A stretch of DNA of 64,000 nucleotides. Origin: a virus (Duplodnaviria; Caudoviricetes). The notes under the pieces were generated by a model. That model did not search any database. It was not told where the DNA came from and saw only the letters and a list, made by a program, of their open reading frames with translations. Position 1 is the first letter of the stretch, and the number at the start of each line of letters is the position of its first letter. Location of the stretch: the IMG/VR virus record IMGVR_UViG_3300015207_000465, positions 1-64,000 of that record; one strand, 5' to 3'. A program made the position numbers and the translations under genes. Positions 2,303 through 62,308 of the stretch are shown one piece after another.

Positions 2303-2767
2303 TCATTTACTTAGTAAATAATTAAGCAATTCAAGTTCTTCCGGGGTCAATCGCTCAAAACCAACATTCAAGATAGTATTTACCGAGTCAATGTCATTTT
2401 CTTTGTCCGGTCTGCCTATAGCCATATCCAGAAAGTGCATCATTAATTTTGCACTACCTTTCCTTGCGGATTGGAGTAATGCCTCTGCGACTACTATTAA
2501 CCATACCGGGGCTTGTTCTTGAGGCTGTTTTCCTTGCTCAATCAACGCCTCAAGTTCGGTGTATGATAGATTAATCAATATGGCTACTGATTTTCTAAAA
2601 TCCTCTTTGGTTATCGCATCGCCATATTTACGGAGTGTTTTTGCACCTATCAACGGTTTGCGTCCGTTGTTCTTTGGTTGATTCAGTGAGGTAAAGCGGG
2701 TGTTAACTCCCGCTTTATTTCCTCGCTGAAATCCTTTTGGGCGTTTGCTCGGGTATTTCATTGTCAT
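2303..2767 (-). CDS. Terminase small subunit-like protein (DUF5681-like N-terminus)
   Basis: GFQRGNKAG..RF..NQPKNNGRK N-terminus and helical C-terminus ending in a D..IGRP motif. Confidence 0.55.
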   Translation of the reverse strand: MTMKYPSKRPKGFQRGNKAGVNTRFTSLNQPKNNGRKPLIGAKTLRKYGDAITKEDFRKSVAILINLSYTELEALIEQGKQPQEQAPVWLIVVAEALLQSARKGSAKLMMHFLDMAIGRPDKENDIDSVNTILNVGFERLTPEELELLNYLLSK

Positions 2768-15027: not shown

Positions 15028-15129
15028 GAAAGAATAGCTCAGTTGGCAGAGCGGACATCAGTAAAACGGGGCAACCATGGAAATCCTCGTGGGGATGTCA
15101 GGTCGGTGGTTCGAGTCCATCTTCTTTCA
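15028..15129 (+). ncRNA. tRNA-like RNA with expanded (34-nt) anticodon loop
   Basis: Acceptor GAAAGAA/TTCTTTC, D arm GCTC/GAGC, stem GACATC/GATGTC, T arm GGTGG-TTCGAGT-CCATC. Confidence 0.75.
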
Positions 15130-40091: not shown

Positions 40092-40309
40092 GAACGATAG
40101 AATACAACAGCTTTGAAGAAGCCGTAGCCGCAATGGTGGAATTTCTGAAACAAGGTATACGATGCAAAGGCGTAGGCTGGACAACCCTGCAAGTCTGGGA
40201 TGATTGATGGAAGAAGCCCTATTTACGACTTTGTGTAATAGGTCGTAAGAGATAGATACCGAAATGTTTTATGATGCGAAATAAGACTTAATTTAGCGTC
40301 ATAAAACAT

Positions 40310-40382
40310 CGCGGGTTGGAGCAGTTGGAAGCTCGCCAGTTTAACTTGCTGGAGGTCGTGGGTTCGAGTCCTACACCCGCCA
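40310..40382 (+). tRNA. Initiator-type tRNA body with anticodon AAC (would read GUU)
   Basis: CGCGGGT/ACCCGCC acceptor with C1xC72 mismatch, A73, D stem GAGC/GCTC (A11:U24), stem CCAGT/GCTGG, loop TTAACTT, T arm GTGGG-TTCGAGT-CCTAC; CCA not encoded. Confidence 0.88.
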
Positions 40383-40413
40383 CAAATAAAAATCACTTTT
40401 ACAAACTTAATCG

Positions 40414-41059: not shown

Positions 41060-41836
41060 ATGAATAAGTTTGAAGAAACCATGCAAATAATTCGGAGTAT
41101 CCGTCAAAAGACGGATACTGCCGTTTTATTTTATTCAGCCGGTGGAAAGGATGGCATCGCCTTGCTTGATATGCTTGCGCCGGTCTTTGAGAAAGTCATT
41201 TGCTATTACATGTGGCTTGTGCCGGGTCTTGACCATGTGAAGCCCTATCTGAAATGGGCGGTAACGAAATATCCCAACGTGGAAATAAGGCAGATTCAGC
41301 ACTATCAACGCGACTACTACGACCGCTATGGATTTTTTCAGCTTGGCGAGGGCAATCCCGACATCAAGCCGCGCAAAGTCGGCGAGGTGGAAGAGATGGT
41401 GCGCCAAGAAACAGGTATCAAGTGGGCGTTCAGCGGAATGAAAGGCGTTGACGGCTACATGAAACGTATGCGTCTGCTGACGTTCAGAAAAAGAAACGGA
41501 ACATACCTCACCGACAAGGGCATGGTCTACCCGTTGGCTGTCTGGACTAACAAGGAGGTGCTTCGCTACATTGAGATGCGGAATCTTATCAAGCCGTTTG
41601 TCTACAATCCCAAGGATGTAAGTCAAGGCTTCGGTGTGGATTTGCGCTCTTTACTTGTATTGCGACAACGATTCCCGCAGGACTACGAGCGCACCATCCG
41701 GGAATTTCCATTTTGTGAAAAACTTATCTTCGACTATGAGAACGGCATACTGCCGCATGGTCAGGAAAAGGAGGTGCTTGAAATCATCAAACGCATAGAA
41801 ACCGAATCAGAAATCGAATTAGAGAATGAAGCCTAA
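41060..41836 (+). CDS. PAPS reductase-family (PP-loop) protein
   Basis: YSAGGKDG, GMK..D...R, YPLAVWTNKEV. Confidence 0.85.
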   Translation: MNKFEETMQIIRSIRQKTDTAVLFYSAGGKDGIALLDMLAPVFEKVICYYMWLVPGLDHVKPYLKWAVTKYPNVEIRQIQHYQRDYYDRYGFFQLGEGNPDIKPRKVGEVEEMVRQETGIKWAFSGMKGVDGYMKRMRLLTFRKRNGTYLTDKGMVYPLAVWTNKEVLRYIEMRNLIKPFVYNPKDVSQGFGVDLRSLLVLRQRFPQDYERTIREFPFCEKLIFDYENGILPHGQEKEVLEIIKRIETESEIELENEA

Positions 41837-42713
41837 CAAGATAAAACAAGCGGAACAGCGCACCGTCAAGCGAAGCGAAATCAATTTCGCTTCATACAAC
41901 CCCCGCACCATCAGCGACGATGCGCGTAAGAAGCTCAAGAAGAATTTGCAGTCAGTCGGCTTACTTGGCGGTGTCGTATGGAACGTGCGCACCGGCAATC
42001 TTGTATCCGGCCATCAAAAAGTCGCCATCATGGATGCCGTCAATCGTTACAACCCGGAAACGGGCGAGAACGATTATGAATTTCGTGTTGAGGTCGTAGA
42101 CCTTGATTTGAAGACGGAAAAGGAGCAAAACCTCTTTATGAACAATAAGGCGGTGCAGGGTACATACGATGACGATATGCTGCGCTCCCTACTGTCGGAA
42201 ATAGATTACACCAATGCCGGATTTGACGATGTTGATTTACAGCTTCTCGGTCTTGGCGATTTTGGCGACTACGACACCCTTAATCTGGGAATCGGCGACT
42301 TTGACACTGCCGGCGAATCGCAGAACGGCGACACAGGCACACCCCCCGGTCAGCCGGAAACAAAAGACTGGTCAAAGAACGATGTCGTTGGCGAGCGCGA
42401 AGACCTTGCCATACATGACGAAATGACAAAGGAAAGTGGCGAGAACCACAAACTTGACCGGTCGGCTGGCTTCTATGAAGATAGTGAGGCGAACCAGATT
42501 GCACGCCACAACGAGGTGCAGAAAATCAAAGACCGCATCGCAAGTCAGAATGATGTTGACAAGGATGGCGGTATGCTGTCCTATGTTGTCATCAGCTTCA
42601 AGACACCGAGCGAAAAAGTCCGTTTCATGGAATCATACGGCTTCGACCCGATGGCGAAATACATCAACGGTGAAGAGTTCCAGAATAAGATTGAGTTCGG
42701 CGAAGACGAGTAA
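41826..42713 (+). CDS. ParB/Srx N-terminal domain protein
   Basis: YNPRTIS..LKKNL...GLLGGVVWN..GNLVSGHQ. Confidence 0.85.
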   Translation: MKPNKIKQAEQRTVKRSEINFASYNPRTISDDARKKLKKNLQSVGLLGGVVWNVRTGNLVSGHQKVAIMDAVNRYNPETGENDYEFRVEVVDLDLKTEKEQNLFMNNKAVQGTYDDDMLRSLLSEIDYTNAGFDDVDLQLLGLGDFGDYDTLNLGIGDFDTAGESQNGDTGTPPGQPETKDWSKNDVVGEREDLAIHDEMTKESGENHKLDRSAGFYEDSEANQIARHNEVQKIKDRIASQNDVDKDGGMLSYVVISFKTPSEKVRFMESYGFDPMAKYINGEEFQNKIEFGEDE

Positions 42714-43068: not shown

Positions 43069-43695
43069 GTTAAGAGGCCTAAGTTTAAAAAAAGTTTCAA
43101 CGAAGAGTTGAATCGTAAGTTGTCGGATGGTGGAATAAAACATCATCCCGATGGTTTATATCCTGCTGGGGTGGGTGAATTCCATAAAGCAATTAAAATT
43201 GCTAAAAGAAATAATGGTAATGGGTGGATGGTAGAGAAAAAGGGCAGGGGAAGTTATTCCGGGCTACGCCTCTTTATGTCTAAAGATAAGAAGATGGGAT
43301 TTGCCTTAGATGGCGATAATATAGTGTCTGTCTTTAGCTGTAAGCCAAAAGGAAGTAATGCGATGGGTAAAATTATCCCATTTGCAGTAGCCATGGGTGG
43401 CAGAAGATTGGACTGTTTCGCAGGTGGTCTTCAAAATCTTTATGCCAAGTATGGTGCGCGTCCAACAGGAAAAACACATTTCGACGAGCGATATGCGCCT
43501 CCCGGGTGGGATGGAAAGTCTCATCATCCAATTGTAGCGATGAGATTGCCAAACTCCCTTGAAAAATTGATTAAGGCTTACAACCCAAGACAAAAAGTCA
43601 GCCTTAACGGGGTGCGGTATTATTCTTCGTATAATGACATGGAAAATTCAGCGAGAAAGCGTGGTGCAAGGAATAATATTAAACAAAGCTCTTAG
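43069..43695 (+). CDS. GNAT-like domain protein; proposed GTT start
   Basis: DNIVSVFS..AVAMGGRRLDCF...L..LY.KYG..P....FDERYAPPGWD; frame open from 43060; first ATG far inside; TTG 43108 is the alternative start. Confidence 0.65.
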   Translation, partial: VKRPKFKKSFNEELNRKLSDGGIKHHPDGLYPAGVGEFHKAIKIAKRNNGNGWMVEKKGRGSYSGLRLFMSKDKKMGFALDGDNIVSVFSCKPKGSNAMGKIIPFAVAMGGRRLDCFAGGLQNLYAKYGARPTGKTHFDERYAPPGWDGKSHHPIVAMRLPNSLEKLIKAYNPRQKVSLNGVRYYSSYNDMENSARKRGARNNIKQSS

Positions 43696-44500: not shown

Positions 44501-44701
44501 GTTAGACGCAGGAAAACAAGAGAACAAATAGAAGCCCAAGCATCGCGCCTCAGTGAAGCTAATTGGCGCAGGCGTAATGTGTGGGAAAGCGGCACCGCAT
44601 CCCGTAGGGCAAAAGAGTCACGCGACCGATTGATAGATAAAGCCGAGAAGCGTGCTTTAGTTCAAAACGGATTAAGAATGGCGACCGGGGGGGGCAAATA
44701 G
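44501..44701 (+). CDS. Small Arg-rich protein (66 aa, not in ORF track); proposed GTT start
   Basis: (V)RRRKTREQIEAQASRLSEANWRRRNVWESG...; in-frame TAA at 44477; no ATG/GTG/TTG until codon 27; A-rich leader. Confidence 0.6.
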   Translation, partial: VRRRKTREQIEAQASRLSEANWRRRNVWESGTASRRAKESRDRLIDKAEKRALVQNGLRMATGGGK

Positions 44702-44720: not shown

Positions 44721-44790
44721 TGCGTGTTAGAGAAGCGGTCATCTCGCCGTCATCAGACGGAAATCGCAAGTTCGACTCTTGCACACGCAG
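44721..44790 (+). ncRNA. tRNA-like RNA with 4-nt anticodon loop
   Basis: TGCGTGT/ACACGCA, GAGA/TCTC, CCGTC-ATCA-GACGG, GCAAG-TTCGACT-CTTGC. Confidence 0.75.
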
Positions 44791-44824
44791 CATAGAAAAA
44801 TAACGGAATTTCATTATCACGACA

Positions 44825-45496
44825 ATGCCGAAGAAGCGAATTAGCAACAAGACACCGCGCAAGCCCAAGGCAACACCCTCGTTTGACTACGAGAGTGAGG
44901 AATTTCTGTCGCGCATTGATGCACTTGCTTTTGAGGGCTTTTACAATACGGAAATCGCTGACGAATTGAACATTAGCCGATACGAATTGGAAATGGCGAT
45001 AAGTCAGTGCGAAAAATTGCGCAACACGATAGCGTCTGCCCGCGAGCGTGCGCGTGCGCAAGGCGCGGAAATGCCATCACCCGCTATGTTCGCAAAGGTC
45101 TGGGCTGAATGTAACGGAAAGCGCACCCTACTGATGAAAAAGTTCGGAATTGGCTGGACTAAACTGCAATCGTGGTTGGCGCAAGAGCCGATATTCGTAG
45201 ATATAATGGCGGAACGCGACCTTGAATTTCTTGAGCAGATTGATGTCGCCAGCCGCATCCTTGCATTGGGCGGTGTGAAAGGAAAGGACAACTTTGCGGG
45301 ATGGAGTCGCTACCCCGACAGTTGGATGATGCGCTATCATCTGAATACACTCGGAAGACGATACGGCTATGGCGAGAATCCTATCCAACAGGAAGCCGAA
45401 GACACCGACATTCCGAAGAATATTGAACAAGGAATCGATATTGAAAGCTGGATTAAGCAGGAAGTGGAACAAAAGAAGCGTGATACGGAACAATGA
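44825..45496 (+). CDS. Terminase small subunit (putative)
   Basis: HTH segments; ATGA-coupled to TerL. Confidence 0.7.
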   Translation: MPKKRISNKTPRKPKATPSFDYESEEFLSRIDALAFEGFYNTEIADELNISRYELEMAISQCEKLRNTIASARERARAQGAEMPSPAMFAKVWAECNGKRTLLMKKFGIGWTKLQSWLAQEPIFVDIMAERDLEFLEQIDVASRILALGGVKGKDNFAGWSRYPDSWMMRYHLNTLGRRYGYGENPIQQEAEDTDIPKNIEQGIDIESWIKQEVEQKKRDTEQ

Positions 45497-47745
45497 TAAT
45501 CAACCATGAGATATATTACCCCCTTTATACCGACAAGGAGCATTTCATCATCCTTGTTACGGGCGGTCGTGGCTCTGGTAAATCATTCGGAATCGGCGGC
45601 TTCATAGAACGCCTATCGTTTGAATTGAAGCGCAAAGGCTATTCCAATTCAGACACCGATAAGATAGTCCACAACGTACTTTACACGCGCTACACGATGA
45701 CGAGTGCCAGCATTTCCGTTATCCCCGAGTTCTTGGAAAAGATAGACCTTGACGGCACGGGCAGGTATTTCCGCACAACGAAATCGGATATTGTCAACAA
45801 GATGACCGGCAGCCGCATCATGTTCCGCGGCATCAAGACATCATCGGGCAATCAAACCGCCAAGCTGAAATCAATTCATGGCATCACAACCTTTGTATGC
45901 GACGAAGCGGAAGAATGGACTTCTGACCGCGAGTTTGAAACAATCGCCTTTTCCATCCGTCAGCCGGGTATCCAAAATAGGATTATCATCATAATGAACC
46001 CGACCGACAGTAATCATTTCATCTATCAGAAATACATCAAGGATACGCACCGGATTGAGTATTTTGACGGATTCCCCGTGCAGATTTCCACGCATCCGCA
46101 AGTGCTTCACATCCACACTACATATCTTGACAACAAAGCCAATCTATCGGAAGAGTTCATCAAGTCTGCACAGGAGATGAAAGAGCGCGACCCGGAACGG
46201 TACGCCCACATCTTCATGGGCAGATGGGCAGACGTAGCCGAGGGTGCGGTCTTCAAGAAATGGGGCATCGTCAAAGAATTTCCGAAAAACTGCAAACGTG
46301 TGGCCCGCGGTCTTGACTTTGGATATACCAACGATGTCAGCGCGTGCGTGAAATGCGGCATCATCGGAAACGACCTTTACATCGACGAACAATTCTTCAA
46401 GTCCGGGATGCTTTCTTCCGAGCTGATAAAAGCACTGCGCGAAGATGATTCTTTCGTCTACGCCGACAGTGCCGACCCGCGACTGATTGACGAAATCGCC
46501 CTCGGTGGCGTAATCATCTACCCGGTTGCGAAGCCAGCCGGAAGCATCATCGCCGGCATAGAAAAGATGAAATCGTTTGACAACATCTTCATCACGGAAC
46601 GCTCGCTGAATGTTCAGGACGAGTTCAGAAATTATGTGTGGGCGAAAGACAAAGATGGTAACTACATCAACGTGCCGGAAGACAGATTCAACCACTGCTT
46701 TACAGGCGATACACTAATCATGACAACAAAGGGACAAATACCCATCTCGGAAATAACCACAAATGACTATGTGCTAACATCAAATGGTTGTAAAAGAGTA
46801 GAAAACACATTTAATAATGGACTCAAGAAGATATTGCATATTCGGTTGATTTTTGCTAATTTTGTAGTTGAGTTAAAAGGGACACCAGACCATAAAATAA
46901 AGACAGTTGATGGATGGAAACAACTACAAGAATTGACAAAAGGGGATGTGCTATACTTGTGCAAACCTTTAATGGAAAGGAGTACTCGCTCTATCCCGGA
47001 GAAAGATACTTCTCGCGAGGATGTAAGCGATTACACCGCGTCGTCTGGGAGTATTATTACGGTGCAATCCCCAAAGGGTGTCACATCCACCACAAAGACG
47101 GTGATACCCACAATAACGAAATCGGAAACCTCGAAATCGTGGAGTGTAAAAAACACCTATCGCTACATGCTGAAGAGCACAACGACAATCCTGAAATGCT
47201 TGCCGAGCTGCGTGATAGAATGGATTATGCCAGAGGGTATGCAAATAAATGGCATCGTTCAGAAGAAGGCATCGAATGGCATAGAAAACACGGCAAAGAG
47301 GTGGCAGAGAATCTTGAGCCGATTGAATTTACGTGCCAATGGTGTGGAAAGAAGTTTATGTCCAAGCCATGTGGAGCTAACAAATTCTGCTCAAACGGAT
47401 GTAAAACGAAGTTCAGATACCATTCCGGTATTGACAACGAAACAAGAATTTGCAAGCAATGCGGCAAAGAGTTTGTCGCAAACAAATACTCACGAACTTA
47501 CTATTGCTCCCGGCGATGCTCGGGATTGCATAGCGCAGCCGTGCGTCCTGAAAGGGATAGAGATAGTAGCGGAAAATACCGCTAAAGTATACGACATACA
47601 GGTTGCTGACATACACGAATATTTTGCAAATGGAATACTCGTGCATAATTGTGTCGATGCCTCTCGCTACTATGTCTTGGGCTGCATCCTTGGCAAAATA
47701 CTCAAGCCGAAGAATGTAAAGAAATCTGATTTAGGAATATTCTAA
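45493..47745 (+). CDS. terL: Terminase large subunit (PBSX type) containing an intein
   Basis: TGGRGSGKS, CDEAEE, MNP, GLDFGY, ADSADP, and NH|CVDASRY split by the intein; spliced length 432 aa. Confidence 0.95.
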   Translation: MIINHEIYYPLYTDKEHFIILVTGGRGSGKSFGIGGFIERLSFELKRKGYSNSDTDKIVHNVLYTRYTMTSASISVIPEFLEKIDLDGTGRYFRTTKSDIVNKMTGSRIMFRGIKTSSGNQTAKLKSIHGITTFVCDEAEEWTSDREFETIAFSIRQPGIQNRIIIIMNPTDSNHFIYQKYIKDTHRIEYFDGFPVQISTHPQVLHIHTTYLDNKANLSEEFIKSAQEMKERDPERYAHIFMGRWADVAEGAVFKKWGIVKEFPKNCKRVARGLDFGYTNDVSACVKCGIIGNDLYIDEQFFKSGMLSSELIKALREDDSFVYADSADPRLIDEIALGGVIIYPVAKPAGSIIAGIEKMKSFDNIFITERSLNVQDEFRNYVWAKDKDGNYINVPEDRFNHCFTGDTLIMTTKGQIPISEITTNDYVLTSNGCKRVENTFNNGLKKILHIRLIFANFVVELKGTPDHKIKTVDGWKQLQELTKGDVLYLCKPLMERSTRSIPEKDTSREDVSDYTASSGSIITVQSPKGVTSTTKTVIPTITKSETSKSWSVKNTYRYMLKSTTTILKCLPSCVIEWIMPEGMQINGIVQKKASNGIENTAKRWQRILSRLNLRANGVERSLCPSHVELTNSAQTDVKRSSDTIPVLTTKQEFASNAAKSLSQTNTHELTIAPGDARDCIAQPCVLKGIEIVAENTAKVYDIQVADIHEYFANGILVHNCVDASRYYVLGCILGKILKPKNVKKSDLGIF
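46696..47649 (+). mobile_element. Intein (318 aa) in the TerL nuclease motif
   Basis: Block A CFTGDTLI, block B GTPDHKI, block F VYDIQV..HEYFANG, block G ILVHN followed by Cys+1. Confidence 0.93.
46914..47585 (+). CDS. HNH homing endonuclease with two C-terminal Zn fingers, nested out of frame in the intein
   Basis: LHRVVWE..G.IPKG.HIHHKDGD..NN.I.NL; CQWC..FCSNGC and CKQC..YCSRRC. Confidence 0.88.
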   Translation: METTTRIDKRGCAILVQTFNGKEYSLYPGERYFSRGCKRLHRVVWEYYYGAIPKGCHIHHKDGDTHNNEIGNLEIVECKKHLSLHAEEHNDNPEMLAELRDRMDYARGYANKWHRSEEGIEWHRKHGKEVAENLEPIEFTCQWCGKKFMSKPCGANKFCSNGCKTKFRYHSGIDNETRICKQCGKEFVANKYSRTYYCSRRCSGLHSAAVRPERDRDSSGKYR

Positions 47746-53729: not shown

Positions 53730-55013
53730 TCATTGTTGTTTGATTTCAGCAGTCACGCCGTTAGTGTCGGTCACGTCTGCCGGGTTAATCGTTTTTGCGG
53801 TATCGGGATTTTCAGCAGCCACCGACAATCCTAAATCGCAGAAGCCCTTGCAAGCTCCGCGATAGCCGTTGAAAAATTCAGTGGCGGTCATGCGTCGCTT
53901 GTTCGGCATCTGCAATTCAAGTACGGAAAGAAGATTGTCGCCACAGGCGATGTATAGCTTTCGGTCTTGCCAGAATAGCTCGCCGGGCGCATGGTGGCCA
54001 CGCGGTATGTCGGTCTTTTCCGTTCTGAAAATCTTGACGCTCATGGCCTGCTTTCCAAGCATGGCCAGTGAAGTCCAAGCTGATGGGATTGGAGTAAGTG
54101 CGCGTATGAAGTCATAGACGTAATCGGCGGGCTTGAGCCACGGAATGATGCAGTCCTTGCGATGTAGCTTTGGCGCGTAGCATGGCTGGATGAAGTCACA
54201 GATAAGCTCCGACTGAGGAATGGGGTTGCATGAATGGGCTATGCGCTGGATTGCATCGTCTATCATTTCCGCGCCGGCAATGCGTAGCTTGATGTGAACG
54301 TCTTCCGCGTTATCATCTTCATCAATGCCGATGGCAAGATTGTTTATGATGCCGCCGGTGTCGATTTTGTCTTCAAGCATGAACGTTGTCACGCCGGTCA
54401 TGGCATTACCATCCTTGATTGCGGATGCGATGGTGGAAGCACCGCGATACATGGGCAGCATAGATGAGTGGAGGTTGATTGTACCCCACGACGGAATGGT
54501 GTATAGCGCACGTGGCAGTATTCTGAACTCCACTACTACGCCGAGCGTCGCATGAAGATTGTGGATGTGCCGCAGAAATCTATTAGAGTCAAGTTTCCGT
54601 GGTTGAAAAACAAGGATGCCCATAGATTCGGCATAAACCTTGACCGCAGATGGCCGCAGTTTCTTGCCACGCCCGCACGGTTTATCTTCCATAGTTACGA
54701 CTGCCGCGACATCATATCCGTTTTCAACAAGCATTTTTAGCGTGGGAAGCGCAAACTGCCCATTGCCGAAGAATATGATGCGTATTCCCTTGCGTGATAC
54801 AGGCTTGTCAAAATCACGTTCCGGGTATGAAACAATATCAGTTTCGTCAACAATTACATAACCGCCGGATTTCTTCAATCGCAGAAAGTAAGAGCCATCA
54901 TCTTTTGGGTATAAGATTTTGGCTTCCGTAAAAATACCGCCCCCATCATTACCGTGCAGGAGTCTGCTTGGAATTTGGACTGTCTGCCCGACGCGATAAA
55001 GAGGTGTTTTCAT
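53730..55013 (-). CDS. fmt: Phage-encoded methionyl-tRNA formyltransferase homolog with extra N-terminal domain
   Basis: IIFFG..FA, VVT..DKP.GRG.KL, INLHSSMLPMYRGA, TGVTTF..IDTG, YAPKL, QMPNKRRM; ATG 55013 coupled to the XRE stop. Confidence 0.92.
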   Translation of the reverse strand: MKTPLYRVGQTVQIPSRLLHGNDGGGIFTEAKILYPKDDGSYFLRLKKSGGYVIVDETDIVSYPERDFDKPVSRKGIRIIFFGNGQFALPTLKMLVENGYDVAAVVTMEDKPCGRGKKLRPSAVKVYAESMGILVFQPRKLDSNRFLRHIHNLHATLGVVVEFRILPRALYTIPSWGTINLHSSMLPMYRGASTIASAIKDGNAMTGVTTFMLEDKIDTGGIINNLAIGIDEDDNAEDVHIKLRIAGAEMIDDAIQRIAHSCNPIPQSELICDFIQPCYAPKLHRKDCIIPWLKPADYVYDFIRALTPIPSAWTSLAMLGKQAMSVKIFRTEKTDIPRGHHAPGELFWQDRKLYIACGDNLLSVLELQMPNKRRMTATEFFNGYRGACKGFCDLGLSVAAENPDTAKTINPADVTDTNGVTAEIKQQ

Positions 55014-55279
55014 CGCGGCGTGGCGGTTTTGATGTCGATACGTGCGCCGCACTGCGGGCAGATGATTGTTGCCGGGTTGGGTGCGAGGTAGTCTGTGAAT
55101 AGTGATGCAACTGGTACGTCAAGAGCTTCCGCTATCTTTTCAAGGGTAGAGATGTTGGGGCTATTCTTCTCGTTCACGATACTGCCAAGAGTCTGGGGAG
55201 CTATATTCATTTTTTCGGCAAGACTTTTCAGTGTCATACCTTTGGCGGCAACGATTGCTTTAATTCTGAATTTTGACAT
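55010..55279 (-). CDS. XRE-family HTH regulator with zinc ribbon
   Basis: TLKSLAEKM..PNISTLEKIAEALDVPV; CPQCG. Confidence 0.87.
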   Translation of the reverse strand: MSKFRIKAIVAAKGMTLKSLAEKMNIAPQTLGSIVNEKNSPNISTLEKIAEALDVPVASLFTDYLAPNPATIICPQCGARIDIKTATPR

Positions 55280-55467
55280 AAAGTATTTTACTGATTGGGG
55301 TTGTTTTGCTATGAGTATCGCAAAGTTACTCTTCCGCAGTCAGTTAAAACGAGTTCAGAGAGTGAAAAATTGTTAAATACTGATTTAAGTAATGGTTAAT
55401 ACTTGCACGATAAATAATATTAGTGTACCTTTGCAGAGGTCAAACTATAAACGACCACCTTAAAACA

Positions 55468-60779: not shown

Positions 60780-61211
60780 ATGAAGAATGACATCTCACCC
60801 AACAAGGAAACGGTTGTCTTCGGCAATGATTCCGCAGTAATCCGTAAGTACATCAGCGGTATCCCCGGTGGTCGTACTCTGGACTGCACCGGTTTCAAAG
60901 AAGACACCGTGCTGGCCGGCCACGTCATCATCAAGAAGACTGACGGCAAGTATGCCCCCATGCCCGTTAAGGCAGCAGTTCCGGCATCAGGCGAAACAGC
61001 CGCAACGCCCGCGAGCTACGACTCGCTTCCCGCCGGCGCAACCTACGTGGGCATCCTTTATCGCTCCATCAGCGTAAAGAACCCCGCAGCTTCCATCATG
61101 TACGATGGCGTCGTAAACGACAAATTAGTTCCCTATCCCATGACAAGCATCTTGACCGCGTTCAAGACCGCTTGCCCTCACATCATTTTTGAACAGGACG
61201 AGGAGGCCTAA
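60780..61211 (+). CDS. Head decoration-like protein
   Basis: DS.VIRKY..GIPGGRTLD..AGHVII; directly upstream of the capsid gene. Confidence 0.65.
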   Translation: MKNDISPNKETVVFGNDSAVIRKYISGIPGGRTLDCTGFKEDTVLAGHVIIKKTDGKYAPMPVKAAVPASGETAATPASYDSLPAGATYVGILYRSISVKNPAASIMYDGVVNDKLVPYPMTSILTAFKTACPHIIFEQDEEA

Positions 61212-61219
61212 GAATCAGA

Positions 61220-62308
61220 GTTAATCAGTCATTTTATTTCGATTACGCAAAGCGTTTCTTCCCCGGCCTTGTGCTGGCTATCGTAGAACGCCTCAACGAG
61301 AAGCGTGCCAATTCCGCTCTCACCTACCTTTACAAAGAAAAACTTCGCCCGCAGTTTTCGCTTGATGGCCGCTGGGCTTCCATCCTTGCGGAATACACCC
61401 GCGTAGCCGCCGACGTTGTGGCACTTGACTCCGAGCTTCCGCTCAAGAGCCGTGACACACTGGAGGTTGCTTCCGGCACAATTCCCAAAATCGGTATGAA
61501 GCTCTACCTGACCGAAAAGCAGATGAAAGACGTTGACTCGATGATTGCGCAGGGTGTTCCCCTCCAGACCATCATCGACAACATCTTCGCTGATACCCCC
61601 CGTTGCATCGAGGGCATCTGGGAGCGCATCGAAGACATCTTCCTTTCGGAGCTTTCGTCGGGTGTCGGCGTTTCCGAGCGCAACAACGGCACAGGTGTGC
61701 GCATCAACATGAATTTCTATGACGACAACCAGTTCGCTGTTTCCAAACTTTGGAGCAACACCGACGCAACTCCGCTTGACGACATCCAGAAACTTGTTGA
61801 CAAGTCCATTACCGACGCAAACACCATCATCGACGCATACGCTGACGACACCGCCCTCGGTCTTCTCTACAAGAACAAGCAGGTGCGTTCACAGTTCGCG
61901 TTCAATCAGGGCATCGCCATGACCGGTTCGACCACCGTGCCGGTGCTTGACTTTGCGAAGCTCCAGCAGATTTTCCTCACCAAGTGGAACATCAATCTGC
62001 ACCGCGTCGCCCGCCGTGTCAAGACCGAGCTTAACGGCGAAAAGAAAAACCATACCCCGTGGAAGACCGGAACAATTTCCTTTGTCTGCGATGAAGAGCT
62101 TGGCTCACTCGTATGGACTAACGTTGCCGAGGCTTCGCGCCCCGTTGAAGGCGTTGTCTATCAGACTGCCGACCAGTACATCCTCGCAAAGAAATATTCC
62201 AAGACCGACCCCCTCCGCGAGTTTACCGCTTCCGAGGCTATGGTTGTGCCTGTGTTGAACAACGTTGACCGCATCTACACGCTCGACACTCAGACAGTTC
62301 AGGAATGA
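61220..62308 (+). CDS. Major capsid protein; proposed GTT start (362 aa)
   Basis: Size and position; VAADVVALDSELPLKSRD..G.IPKIG; frame open from 61193 with no ATG near the 5' end; first GTG at 61271. Confidence 0.8.
   Translation, partial: VNQSFYFDYAKRFFPGLVLAIVERLNEKRANSALTYLYKEKLRPQFSLDGRWASILAEYTRVAADVVALDSELPLKSRDTLEVASGTIPKIGMKLYLTEKQMKDVDSMIAQGVPLQTIIDNIFADTPRCIEGIWERIEDIFLSELSSGVGVSERNNGTGVRINMNFYDDNQFAVSKLWSNTDATPLDDIQKLVDKSITDANTIIDAYADDTALGLLYKNKQVRSQFAFNQGIAMTGSTTVPVLDFAKLQQIFLTKWNINLHRVARRVKTELNGEKKNHTPWKTGTISFVCDEELGSLVWTNVAEASRPVEGVVYQTADQYILAKKYSKTDPLREFTASEAMVVPVLNNVDRIYTLDTQTVQE

Follow-up and report, generated by a model that had tools for sequence, protein, structure and literature searches.

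To our knowledge, translation in bacterial cells always makes use of a single initiator transfer RNA (tRNA), which carries (formyl-)methionine and by which alternative start codons are read as well. The present work concerns a tRNA gene that locates to positions 40310-40382 (+) of a 64,000-nucleotide stretch of viral DNA (the window), this being the first 64 kb of the 103,409-bp IMG/VR record IMGVR_UViG_3300015207_000465, which is classed as a provirus. The tRNA unites features of an initiator with the valine anticodon AAC, and it is probably a second, phage-encoded initiator tRNA that reads GUU starts. Initiator tRNAs with exchanged anticodons are known from the laboratory: anticodon mutants of the E. 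coli tRNAfMet (GAC/Val and others) are reportedly charged by valyl-tRNA synthetase (ValRS) via A35 and C36 and initiate at the complementary codon. These are constructs, whereas the phage family is a natural one. Phage tRNAs that alter the reading of codons are known from the gut, where suppressor tRNAs recode the stop codons TAG or TGA. Both cases have in common that a phage tRNA changes codon reading and that late genes are, or would be, translatable only with this tRNA; stop-codon recoding, however, acts on elongation and termination at TAG or TGA, whereas the tRNA described here would act on initiation at a sense codon.

The anticodon AAC has also been engineered into the E. coli initiator, and the resulting i-tRNA(AAC) (bioRxiv 10.1101/2021.05.25.445580, 10.64898/2025.12.21.695813) shares with the phage tRNA the initiator body, the anticodon and GUU as start codon. 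It was reported to initiate only at GUU, with valine and formyl-valine, whereby the supply of ValRS and of the methionyl-tRNA formyltransferase (FMT) was found to be limiting (bioRxiv 10.64898/2025.12.21.695813). In the engineered tRNA the anticodon alone was changed, with the three G:C pairs of the anticodon stem and A37 being kept, whereas in the phage family the whole anticodon arm is rebuilt; also unlike the engineered tRNA, the phage family comes with a GA context in front of the start codon, with GAC and UAC versions of the anticodon and with a phage late-gene programme. Work on the E. coli tRNAfMet moreover revealed, by means of compensatory A37U and A37G mutants, that its position 37 pairs with mRNA position -1 (PMC10018350), and A37U favours A(-1), which corresponds to the U37 and the invariant A(-1) found here. 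This effect is modest in E. coli (PMC10018350), whereas the phage context is invariant and extends to G(-2) and mostly to A(+4). Searching the literature identified the engineered i-tRNA(AAC) and no natural counterpart of it, with most subscription journals lying outside the coverage of this search, so that a prior description is possible.

The tRNA gene, its family and its probable origin

The gene was called as tRNA-Val(AAC) at 40310-40383 by ARAGORN and matched the Rfam model RF00005 at 40310-40382 (73 nucleotides) with 47.2 bits, as compared to a cut-off of 29 bits. Both programs agree with the initial annotation, which had described a tRNA with all stems paired and with the mismatch C1xC72, the pairs G2:C71, C3:G70 and A11:U24, and A73, all of which are read directly in the sequence. 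The same holds for the anticodon loop, U32 U33 A34 A35 C36 U37 U38, with its AAC anticodon and a pyrimidine at position 37, and for the anticodon stem (C27:G43, C28:G42, A29:U41, G30:C40 and U31.G39), in which G30:C40, beside A29:U41 and U31.G39, is the single initiator G:C pair to be found, as had been noticed before. The CCA end is not encoded. As compared to the features expected from an initiator, the tRNA lacks the three consecutive G:C pairs (29:41, 30:40 and 31:39) and the anticodon CAU, in whose place AAC is found here and GAC or UAC in relatives; as compared to those of a tRNA-Val, the NAC anticodon and the ValRS identity elements A35, C36 and A73 are all present; and a paired 1:72 position together with a purine at 37, as expected from an elongator, is absent from the tRNA family.

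The phage is a prophage of mouse-gut Bacteroidales. Near-identical DNA was found in mouse gut metagenomes, the public runs carrying the phage DNA are mouse and rat gut metagenomes (none of them RNA), and related prophages reside in Lepagella muris, Paramuribaculum intestinale and other Muribaculaceae, in Bacteroides species and in an Algoriella. Among cultured strains, such prophages are found in Lepagella muris NM04_E33, Paramuribaculum intestinale DSM 100749 and Muribaculaceae Isolate-036. Comparison with the initiators of such hosts revealed that, the anticodon arm excepted, the phage tRNA and the Bacteroidales host initiator are about the same molecule: there is next to no difference from the initiator tRNA-fMet of Lepagella and Muribaculaceae in the acceptor stem, D arm, variable loop and T arm, and the unpaired 1x72, G2:C71, C3:G70, A11:U24 and A73 are shared. 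The main differences lie in the anticodon arm, where the phage tRNAs possess NAC in place of CAU, U37 U38 in place of A A and, in place of the three G:C pairs of the host initiator, a variable 29:41 pair, G:C or C:G at 30:40 and U31.G39; valine is accordingly the amino acid expected. Searching five prophage-bearing host genomes identified the initiator tRNA-Met(CAU) as the best full-length match besides the prophage tRNA in four of them, and in the fifth, that of Bacteroides neonati, the prophage tRNA itself came out as the best match over the full length; the matches inspected in these five genomes included no host tRNA-Val. Nearest matches in phage records are annotated as tRNA-Met or fMet. 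The possibility that the body would score as that of an elongator tRNA-Val, which had been raised at the outset, does not agree with these matches. The initiator of E. coli possesses C1xA72; those of Lepagella, a Muribaculaceae isolate and Algoriella (L221, L222 and L223) possess C1xC72 or C1xU72, so that the CxC of the phage tRNA is a host-type mismatch.

Relatives of the tRNA were identified by a pattern in which the loop flanks were fixed and the anticodon was left free, and the family turned out to span at least 90 viral contigs and the genomes of seven Bacteroidota species, with AAC or GAC in every match listed. A pattern that asked for a pyrimidine at position 34 had UAC as its sole outcome, and one that asked for a base other than A at position 35 identified no tRNA of the family; all anticodons of the family are AAC, GAC or UAC. 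Relatives were furthermore collected via the neighbouring ParB-like protein (41826-42713), hence without making use of the tRNA sequence. Each of the 13 relatives that possess a tRNA at this locus carries the same kind of tRNA with either AAC or GAC, and two relatives whose neighbouring protein is about 52% identical differ in this respect, one having AAC and the other GAC. Other routes, namely a megablast of 12 kb against phage records, an exact-match search of the tRNA against viral contigs and a search for related loci via the 117-residue protein downstream of the tRNA, returned nothing.

Aligning 20 distinct family sequences to the cloverleaf showed 94.8% of the cells to be paired and 13 of the 21 pairs to have undergone compensatory changes, values that were reached in none of 500 shuffles. 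Every pair except 1-72 is formed in at least 95% of the sequences, G2:C71 in all 20 of them, C3:G70 in 19 (the remaining one having U.G) and A11:U24 likewise in 19 (the remaining one having U:A); A73 is invariant. Pair 1-72 is formed in none of the 20, the combinations being CxA, CxC, CxU, UxC, UxU and AxA. As these bases vary and yet are never complementary, the alignment indicates that the mismatch itself is under selection. Within the anticodon arm, pair 29:41 is A:U, G:C or U:A, 12 sequences have G:C and 8 have C:G at pair 30:40, and 31:39 is U.G in all members seen; U37 U38 are kept throughout the 20 sequences, and U37 was also found in every relative that had been identified without constraining the loop. 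The initial annotation had taken the tRNA not to be decayed, and the compensatory pairs, as well as the relatives found via the ParB-like protein, which keep AAC or GAC, bear this out; a single-lineage decay product with close homologues having CAT was not encountered, as the relatives carry AAC or GAC only.

Genes that open at GTN codons and the phage formyltransferase

That GUU codons serve as starts had been proposed from the GAGUUA context, and this proposal was strengthened by homologues with an ATG start, whose first methionine aligns on the GTT codon in two genes, those of the capsid protein and of a small arginine-rich protein. The major capsid protein (61220-62308, +; Phage_cap_E / phrog_29), identified by profile matches and alignment of homologues, starts with AGA-GTT-AAT. 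Its frame opens after a TGA at 61190, and the first ATG is codon 102 of the frame, which locates inside the capsid domain; starting there would cost the protein about 92 residues. Distant homologues of 361-364 amino acids begin with M-E/N-K/Q-S-L/F-Y-F and align residue for residue on V-N-Q-S-F-Y-F from the GTT at 61220. At the DNA level, 11 related loci have GTT at the codon aligned on the capsid start, one has GTA, and 68 loci that are more distant have ATG. Several relatives possess a TGA in frame immediately before the GTT, which renders an upstream start impossible. The closest homologues in databases all start at least 17 residues late (61271).

The second gene (44501-44701, +), upstream of the terminase genes, encodes an arginine-rich protein of 66 amino acids (VRRRKTREQ...), assigned by alignment of homologues, and starts with AGA-GTT-AGA. 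Its homologues with an ATG start begin with MARRKTREQ, aligned on VRRRKTREQ; they are the sole full-length entries, and the nearest entries in databases are truncated N-terminally. Such truncated public records result from the fact that gene callers require ATG, GTG or TTG. Many carriers encode small basic VRR proteins of this kind at 0.5-4 kb downstream of the tRNA, and in this lineage the genes of these proteins are missed or shortened by gene callers. A third gene (43069-43695, +) starts with AGA-GTT-AAG, has a conserved start and encodes a protein of 208 amino acids to which no function is assigned, with a weak match to phrog_2563 and no Pfam family even at E = 1. An in-frame stop is found three codons upstream of its GTT, and its homologues in the relatives G006 and G009 (38-40% identity) likewise open with GA-GTT-A. 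The ESM Atlas record of this protein begins at residue 54 (43228) and falls into unnamed atlas clusters, and an AlphaFold model derived from a three-sequence alignment had a pLDDT (predicted local distance difference test) of 40.7, which is too low for use. Two further genes lie beyond the window, at positions 64030 and 89368 of the genome; here, PHROG profiles align from residue 8 and residue 2 of the respective protein, and both genes keep GTT in a relative that is about 90% identical. GTT starts are retained in G006 and G009 at 38-90% protein identity. Taken at the level of sequence, the view that the GTT codons of these genes are their real N-termini is supported.

The VRR proteins were searched for with any first codon and in any context, and all real ones open with GA-GTY-AGA. 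Phages with the AAC tRNA have GTT in 7/7 distinct VRR proteins and, in the carriers examined, at every homologue of the capsid, 43069, 64030 and 89368 genes; of the distinct VRR proteins in phages with the GAC tRNA, 15 start with GTC and 8 with GTT. The single phage of the UAC lineage, whose tRNA possesses C1xU72, U31.G39 and the loop UUUACUU, has a capsid start of GA-GTA-A and a second GA-GTA start 0.5 kb after the tRNA. This pattern matches the prediction from base pairing, by which an unmodified A34 is restricted to U and G34 accepts C or U, and the relation recurs in separate lineages of the tRNA body (L056/L205 with AAC and GTT; L058 and the L016/L089 type with GAC and GTC). Internal valine codon usage is independent of the anticodon, GTC, for example, amounting to 15% of such codons in two out of three GAC phages that were examined; thus the choice of the start is not a general codon bias, and a role of the tRNA as codon supplement is unlikely. 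A start codon that follows the anticodon across AAC, GAC and UAC phages is therefore supported by the sequences compared.

The context in front of these codons is equally restricted. GA at positions -2 and -1 was found at 30 of 30 distinct VRR starts, although GA was not required in the search, and at every GTN start of the capsid genes, as compared to 4 of the 103 ATG starts of this phage. Position +4 is A at all starts but one, the exception being the homologue of the 64030 gene in G006, which has GA-GTT-G. The GAGUUA context of the initial annotation hence needs to be qualified: over the entire window, GAGTTAA shows no enrichment (10 matches, with 7.3 being expected), and the context is significant only at starts that are defined by homology. 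Such starts were used in place of a crude count of GA-NNN-A at the 5' ends of open reading frames (ORFs), which was rejected as non-discriminating, spurious antisense ORFs passing it too. Of the pairings proposed along with the context, that of U37 with A(-1) gained in plausibility from the invariant A at this position and from the compensatory experiments in E. coli (PMC10018350), and that of U38 with G(-2) stays conjectural, since an A would pair equally and is never seen.

Another gene that links to these starts is a homologue of the methionyl-tRNA formyltransferase (53730-55013, -). The encoded protein of 427 amino acids, hereafter Fmt, carries an N-terminal extension of about 75 residues, possesses the Pfam domains Formyl_trans_N (PF00551) and Formyl_trans_C (PF02911), scores 217.8 bits with TIGR00460 (fmt; cut-off 201.5) and aligns over the full E. 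coli FMT (1fmt/2fmt), with the catalytic Asn and His (N-x-H motif), the catalytic Asp and the tRNA-contacting loop being kept (INLHSS, IDTGG and GRGKKL). Based on these features, we propose that it formylates the charged phage tRNA. The adjoining gene (55010-55282, -) encodes a regulator with a helix-turn-helix of the Cro/CI type (XRE; HTH_3, E = 6.9e-14), and as its stop codon overlaps the fmt start codon, both genes are probably co-transcribed. An fmt homologue is present in 7/7 records with a GTN-start capsid (G000, G006, G007, G016, G017, G022 and G026) and absent from G005 and G009, which are tRNA carriers with an ATG-start capsid; it is also absent from four further tRNA carriers in which a capsid homologue was undetected or unsought. 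In G022, a fragment that is 66% complete, the GTT-start capsid and fmt were identified and no tRNA was found. In the engineered GUU system of E. coli, formylation of Val-tRNA was identified as a bottleneck and extra FMT raised the GUU-initiated output about threefold (bioRxiv 10.64898/2025.12.21.695813), which parallels the phage-encoded Fmt. This bottleneck may be the reason why phages whose most abundant protein has a GTN start bring their own Fmt. Searches for a peptide deformylase gene and for a class-I aminoacyl-tRNA synthetase gene in the phage found neither.

The leader hairpin and neighbouring features

A conserved RNA hairpin (40264-40309, +) of 46 nucleotides, made up of a 14-bp stem and an 18-nucleotide loop, directly abuts the tRNA, with its last base being position -1. 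The stem is paired in 7/7 sequence variants from close relatives, and variation is seen in six pairs, with changes that are compensatory or lead to G.U and that are meaningful only in RNA of the + strand. The main GAC lineage possesses a different hairpin abutting the tRNA, and some lineages have none. Of the two roles that had been suggested along with it, that of a processing signal is possible and that of a terminator is unlikely, as the hairpin is devoid of a U-tract; its existence as such is well documented by the variants. It is probably a 5' leader structure that acts in processing or in regulation and timing. Just upstream of the tRNA, the Bacteroidetes -7 motif TAnnTTTG is found in several lineages; this phage has a near match to it only (TAATTTAG), which resides in the hairpin loop.

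The prophage holds three unusual tRNA-like genes, namely 15028-15129, 40310-40382 and 44721-44791. The last of these (+) locates between the small VRR gene and the terminase genes and combines perfect acceptor, D and T arms with an anticodon arm that consists of a 5-bp stem and a 4-nucleotide loop, and hence is without an anticodon. It is near-invariant in four relatives whose flanks diverge, the few differences including three of the four bases of the 4-nucleotide loop (ATCA, ACAT, ACAA) and one base of the D loop; the Rfam tRNA model did not report this element. The gene at 15028-15129 (+) scores 48.9 bits with Rfam, and where the anticodon arm would be expected, it has a 6-bp stem (GACATC/GATGTC) around an insert of 34 nucleotides; ARAGORN reads the gene as a tRNA-Pro(GGG) with an intron of 31 nucleotides. 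A 99-nucleotide "tRNA-Ala(TGC)" called by ARAGORN at 2624-2722 (+) found no support from Rfam at E <= 1 and is probably a false call. In a relative with an ATG-start capsid (G020), ARAGORN called a tRNA with a four-base anticodon (TGGT; L250, 1424-1498) within a cluster of five tRNAs. Within the terminase-like ORF of 750 amino acids (45493-47745), an ATG-initiated ORF of 223 amino acids (46914-47585) is found in another frame. Beyond the window, near the far end of the record, a full transfer-messenger RNA gene of the Bacteroidetes type with the tag GENNYALAA locates to positions 99516-99911 of the genome (L191, -) and probably represents host flank or the integration site.

A proposed private initiation channel and its alternatives

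Based on these findings, the following course of events can be suggested. The phage tRNA would derive from an initiator of the host type, the anticodon arm of which was rebuilt around a valine anticodon. Its unpaired 1x72 position, G2:C71, C3:G70, A11:U24 and A73 would direct it to formylation, to IF2 and to the ribosomal P site and away from EF-Tu, and charging with valine by the host ValRS would occur through A35, C36 and A73. Next, the phage Fmt may formylate the Val-tRNA, with the host Fmt serving in those phages that have no fmt. The tRNA would then initiate at GUU within GA-GUU-A, whereby the pairing of U37 with A(-1), and possibly those of U38 with G(-2) and of U33 with A(+4), would make up for the G:C pairs that the anticodon stem lacks. 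In this prophage, the late genes with such starts are at least five, namely those of the capsid, the arginine-rich 44501 protein, the 43069 protein and the genes at 64030 and 89368 of the genome, and the tRNA would function as a translational licence, in that these genes are poorly made unless it is expressed. In its general form, it appears rather likely that temperate phages of the Bacteroidota possess a private initiation channel, in which an initiator tRNA-Val acts on GA-GUN-A by at least four to five base pairs, through U37 and perhaps U38, and proteins start with (formyl-)valine, the phage providing its own Fmt where the capsid is controlled in this manner.

Several points weigh against this proposal. 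Charging, formylation, initiation at the P site and licensing of late genes are steps that we infer. The phage tRNA is devoid of the run of three G:C pairs in the anticodon stem that matters for P-site binding and for proofreading by IF3 in the E. coli initiator. Many carriers are without a phage fmt, which leaves them with the host Fmt, and in E. coli this enzyme is poor on Val-tRNA. Considering the context, A at -2 is never seen, although it would pair with U38 as well as or better than G, so that pairing alone does not fully explain the context, and a pairing of U33 with A(+4), which may contribute, is sterically doubtful. Judged from this genome alone, shorter products would be possible from an in-frame GTG that lies 17 codons inside the capsid frame and, for the 43069 frame, from its first canonical start, a TTG 13 codons inside. 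Finally, the counts of loci carry kinship, in that they are not phylogenetically independent, and the UAC case represents one lineage.

Amongst the alternatives, the one to survive best, albeit improbable, assumes that the tRNA acts as a decoy, or as a substitute that resists nucleases, against a host defence that cuts initiator or valine tRNAs, with the host initiator weakly reading the GTN starts. The unusual loop with U37 U38 would suit such a role, and phage tRNAs with altered anticodon loops are said to evade anticodon nucleases, as reportedly described in eLife in 2023. A substitute, however, must keep the anticodon of the tRNA that it replaces, and here an initiator body is combined with a valine anticodon; moreover, this explanation accounts neither for the third base of the start codon, which tracks base 34 of the anticodon (AAC, GAC, UAC), nor for the invariant GA context, nor for the co-occurrence of fmt with GTN-start capsids.

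Still less probable is a function outside of the ribosome, with the Val-tRNA being the substrate of an aminoacyl-transferase such as the 43069 protein and the 1x72 mismatch merely serving to avoid EF-Tu. A precedent is known from the cell-wall tRNA-Gly of staphylococci, which is kept from EF-Tu, weak binding of this factor being typical of tRNAs that act outside translation, and three divergent AAC phages do carry homologues of the 43069 protein, 0.7-2.9 kb downstream from their tRNA gene. Against this stand the GAC phages, which are without such a homologue, and the fact that no transferase family or fold was demonstrated for the 43069 protein. A transferase substrate would furthermore predict no link between the first base of the anticodon and the start codon of genes, yet this link is seen, and the fmt co-occurrence favours use as a formylated, initiator-type tRNA.

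That the gene codes for an ordinary elongator tRNA-Val, which supplements the decoding of GUU, with the GTT starts being oddities of annotation, is very unlikely. The valine anticodon and A73, which fits ValRS identity, would agree with it, and codon supplementation is a frequent explanation for phage tRNAs. It is opposed by a 1x72 mismatch that is maintained through six base combinations, by A11:U24 and a pyrimidine at 37, which are not elongator features, a pyrimidine at 11 opposite a purine at 24 being the rule in elongators, by the host-initiator type of the body, by internal valine codons that are unbiased towards the cognate codon and by start codons that covary with the anticodon; besides, this tRNA is the sole one in five complete or near-complete carrier phages. 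The remaining idea of a decaying pseudogene of a captured initiator tRNA, to which an anticodon arm departing from the initiator and elongator consensus alike might point, can be dismissed, given stems that are all paired, 13 compensatory pairs and an unusual loop that is invariant across lineages with about 50% identical neighbours and across at least 90 viral contigs.

If a second, phage-encoded initiator is what the tRNA represents, it would be the first natural one to have a start codon and an amino acid of its own, and hence would constitute an exception to the single-initiator rule and a natural counterpart of engineered orthogonal initiation. For synthetic biology, it would provide an evolved solution to an engineering problem, in which the anticodon arm is rebuilt, the codon context is extended and an Fmt is dedicated to the task. 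For annotation, it means that genes of this type are shortened or missed by gene callers. For the phages themselves, it would be a new form of viral gene control, in which the capsid and other late genes are untranslatable until the phage tRNA is supplied.

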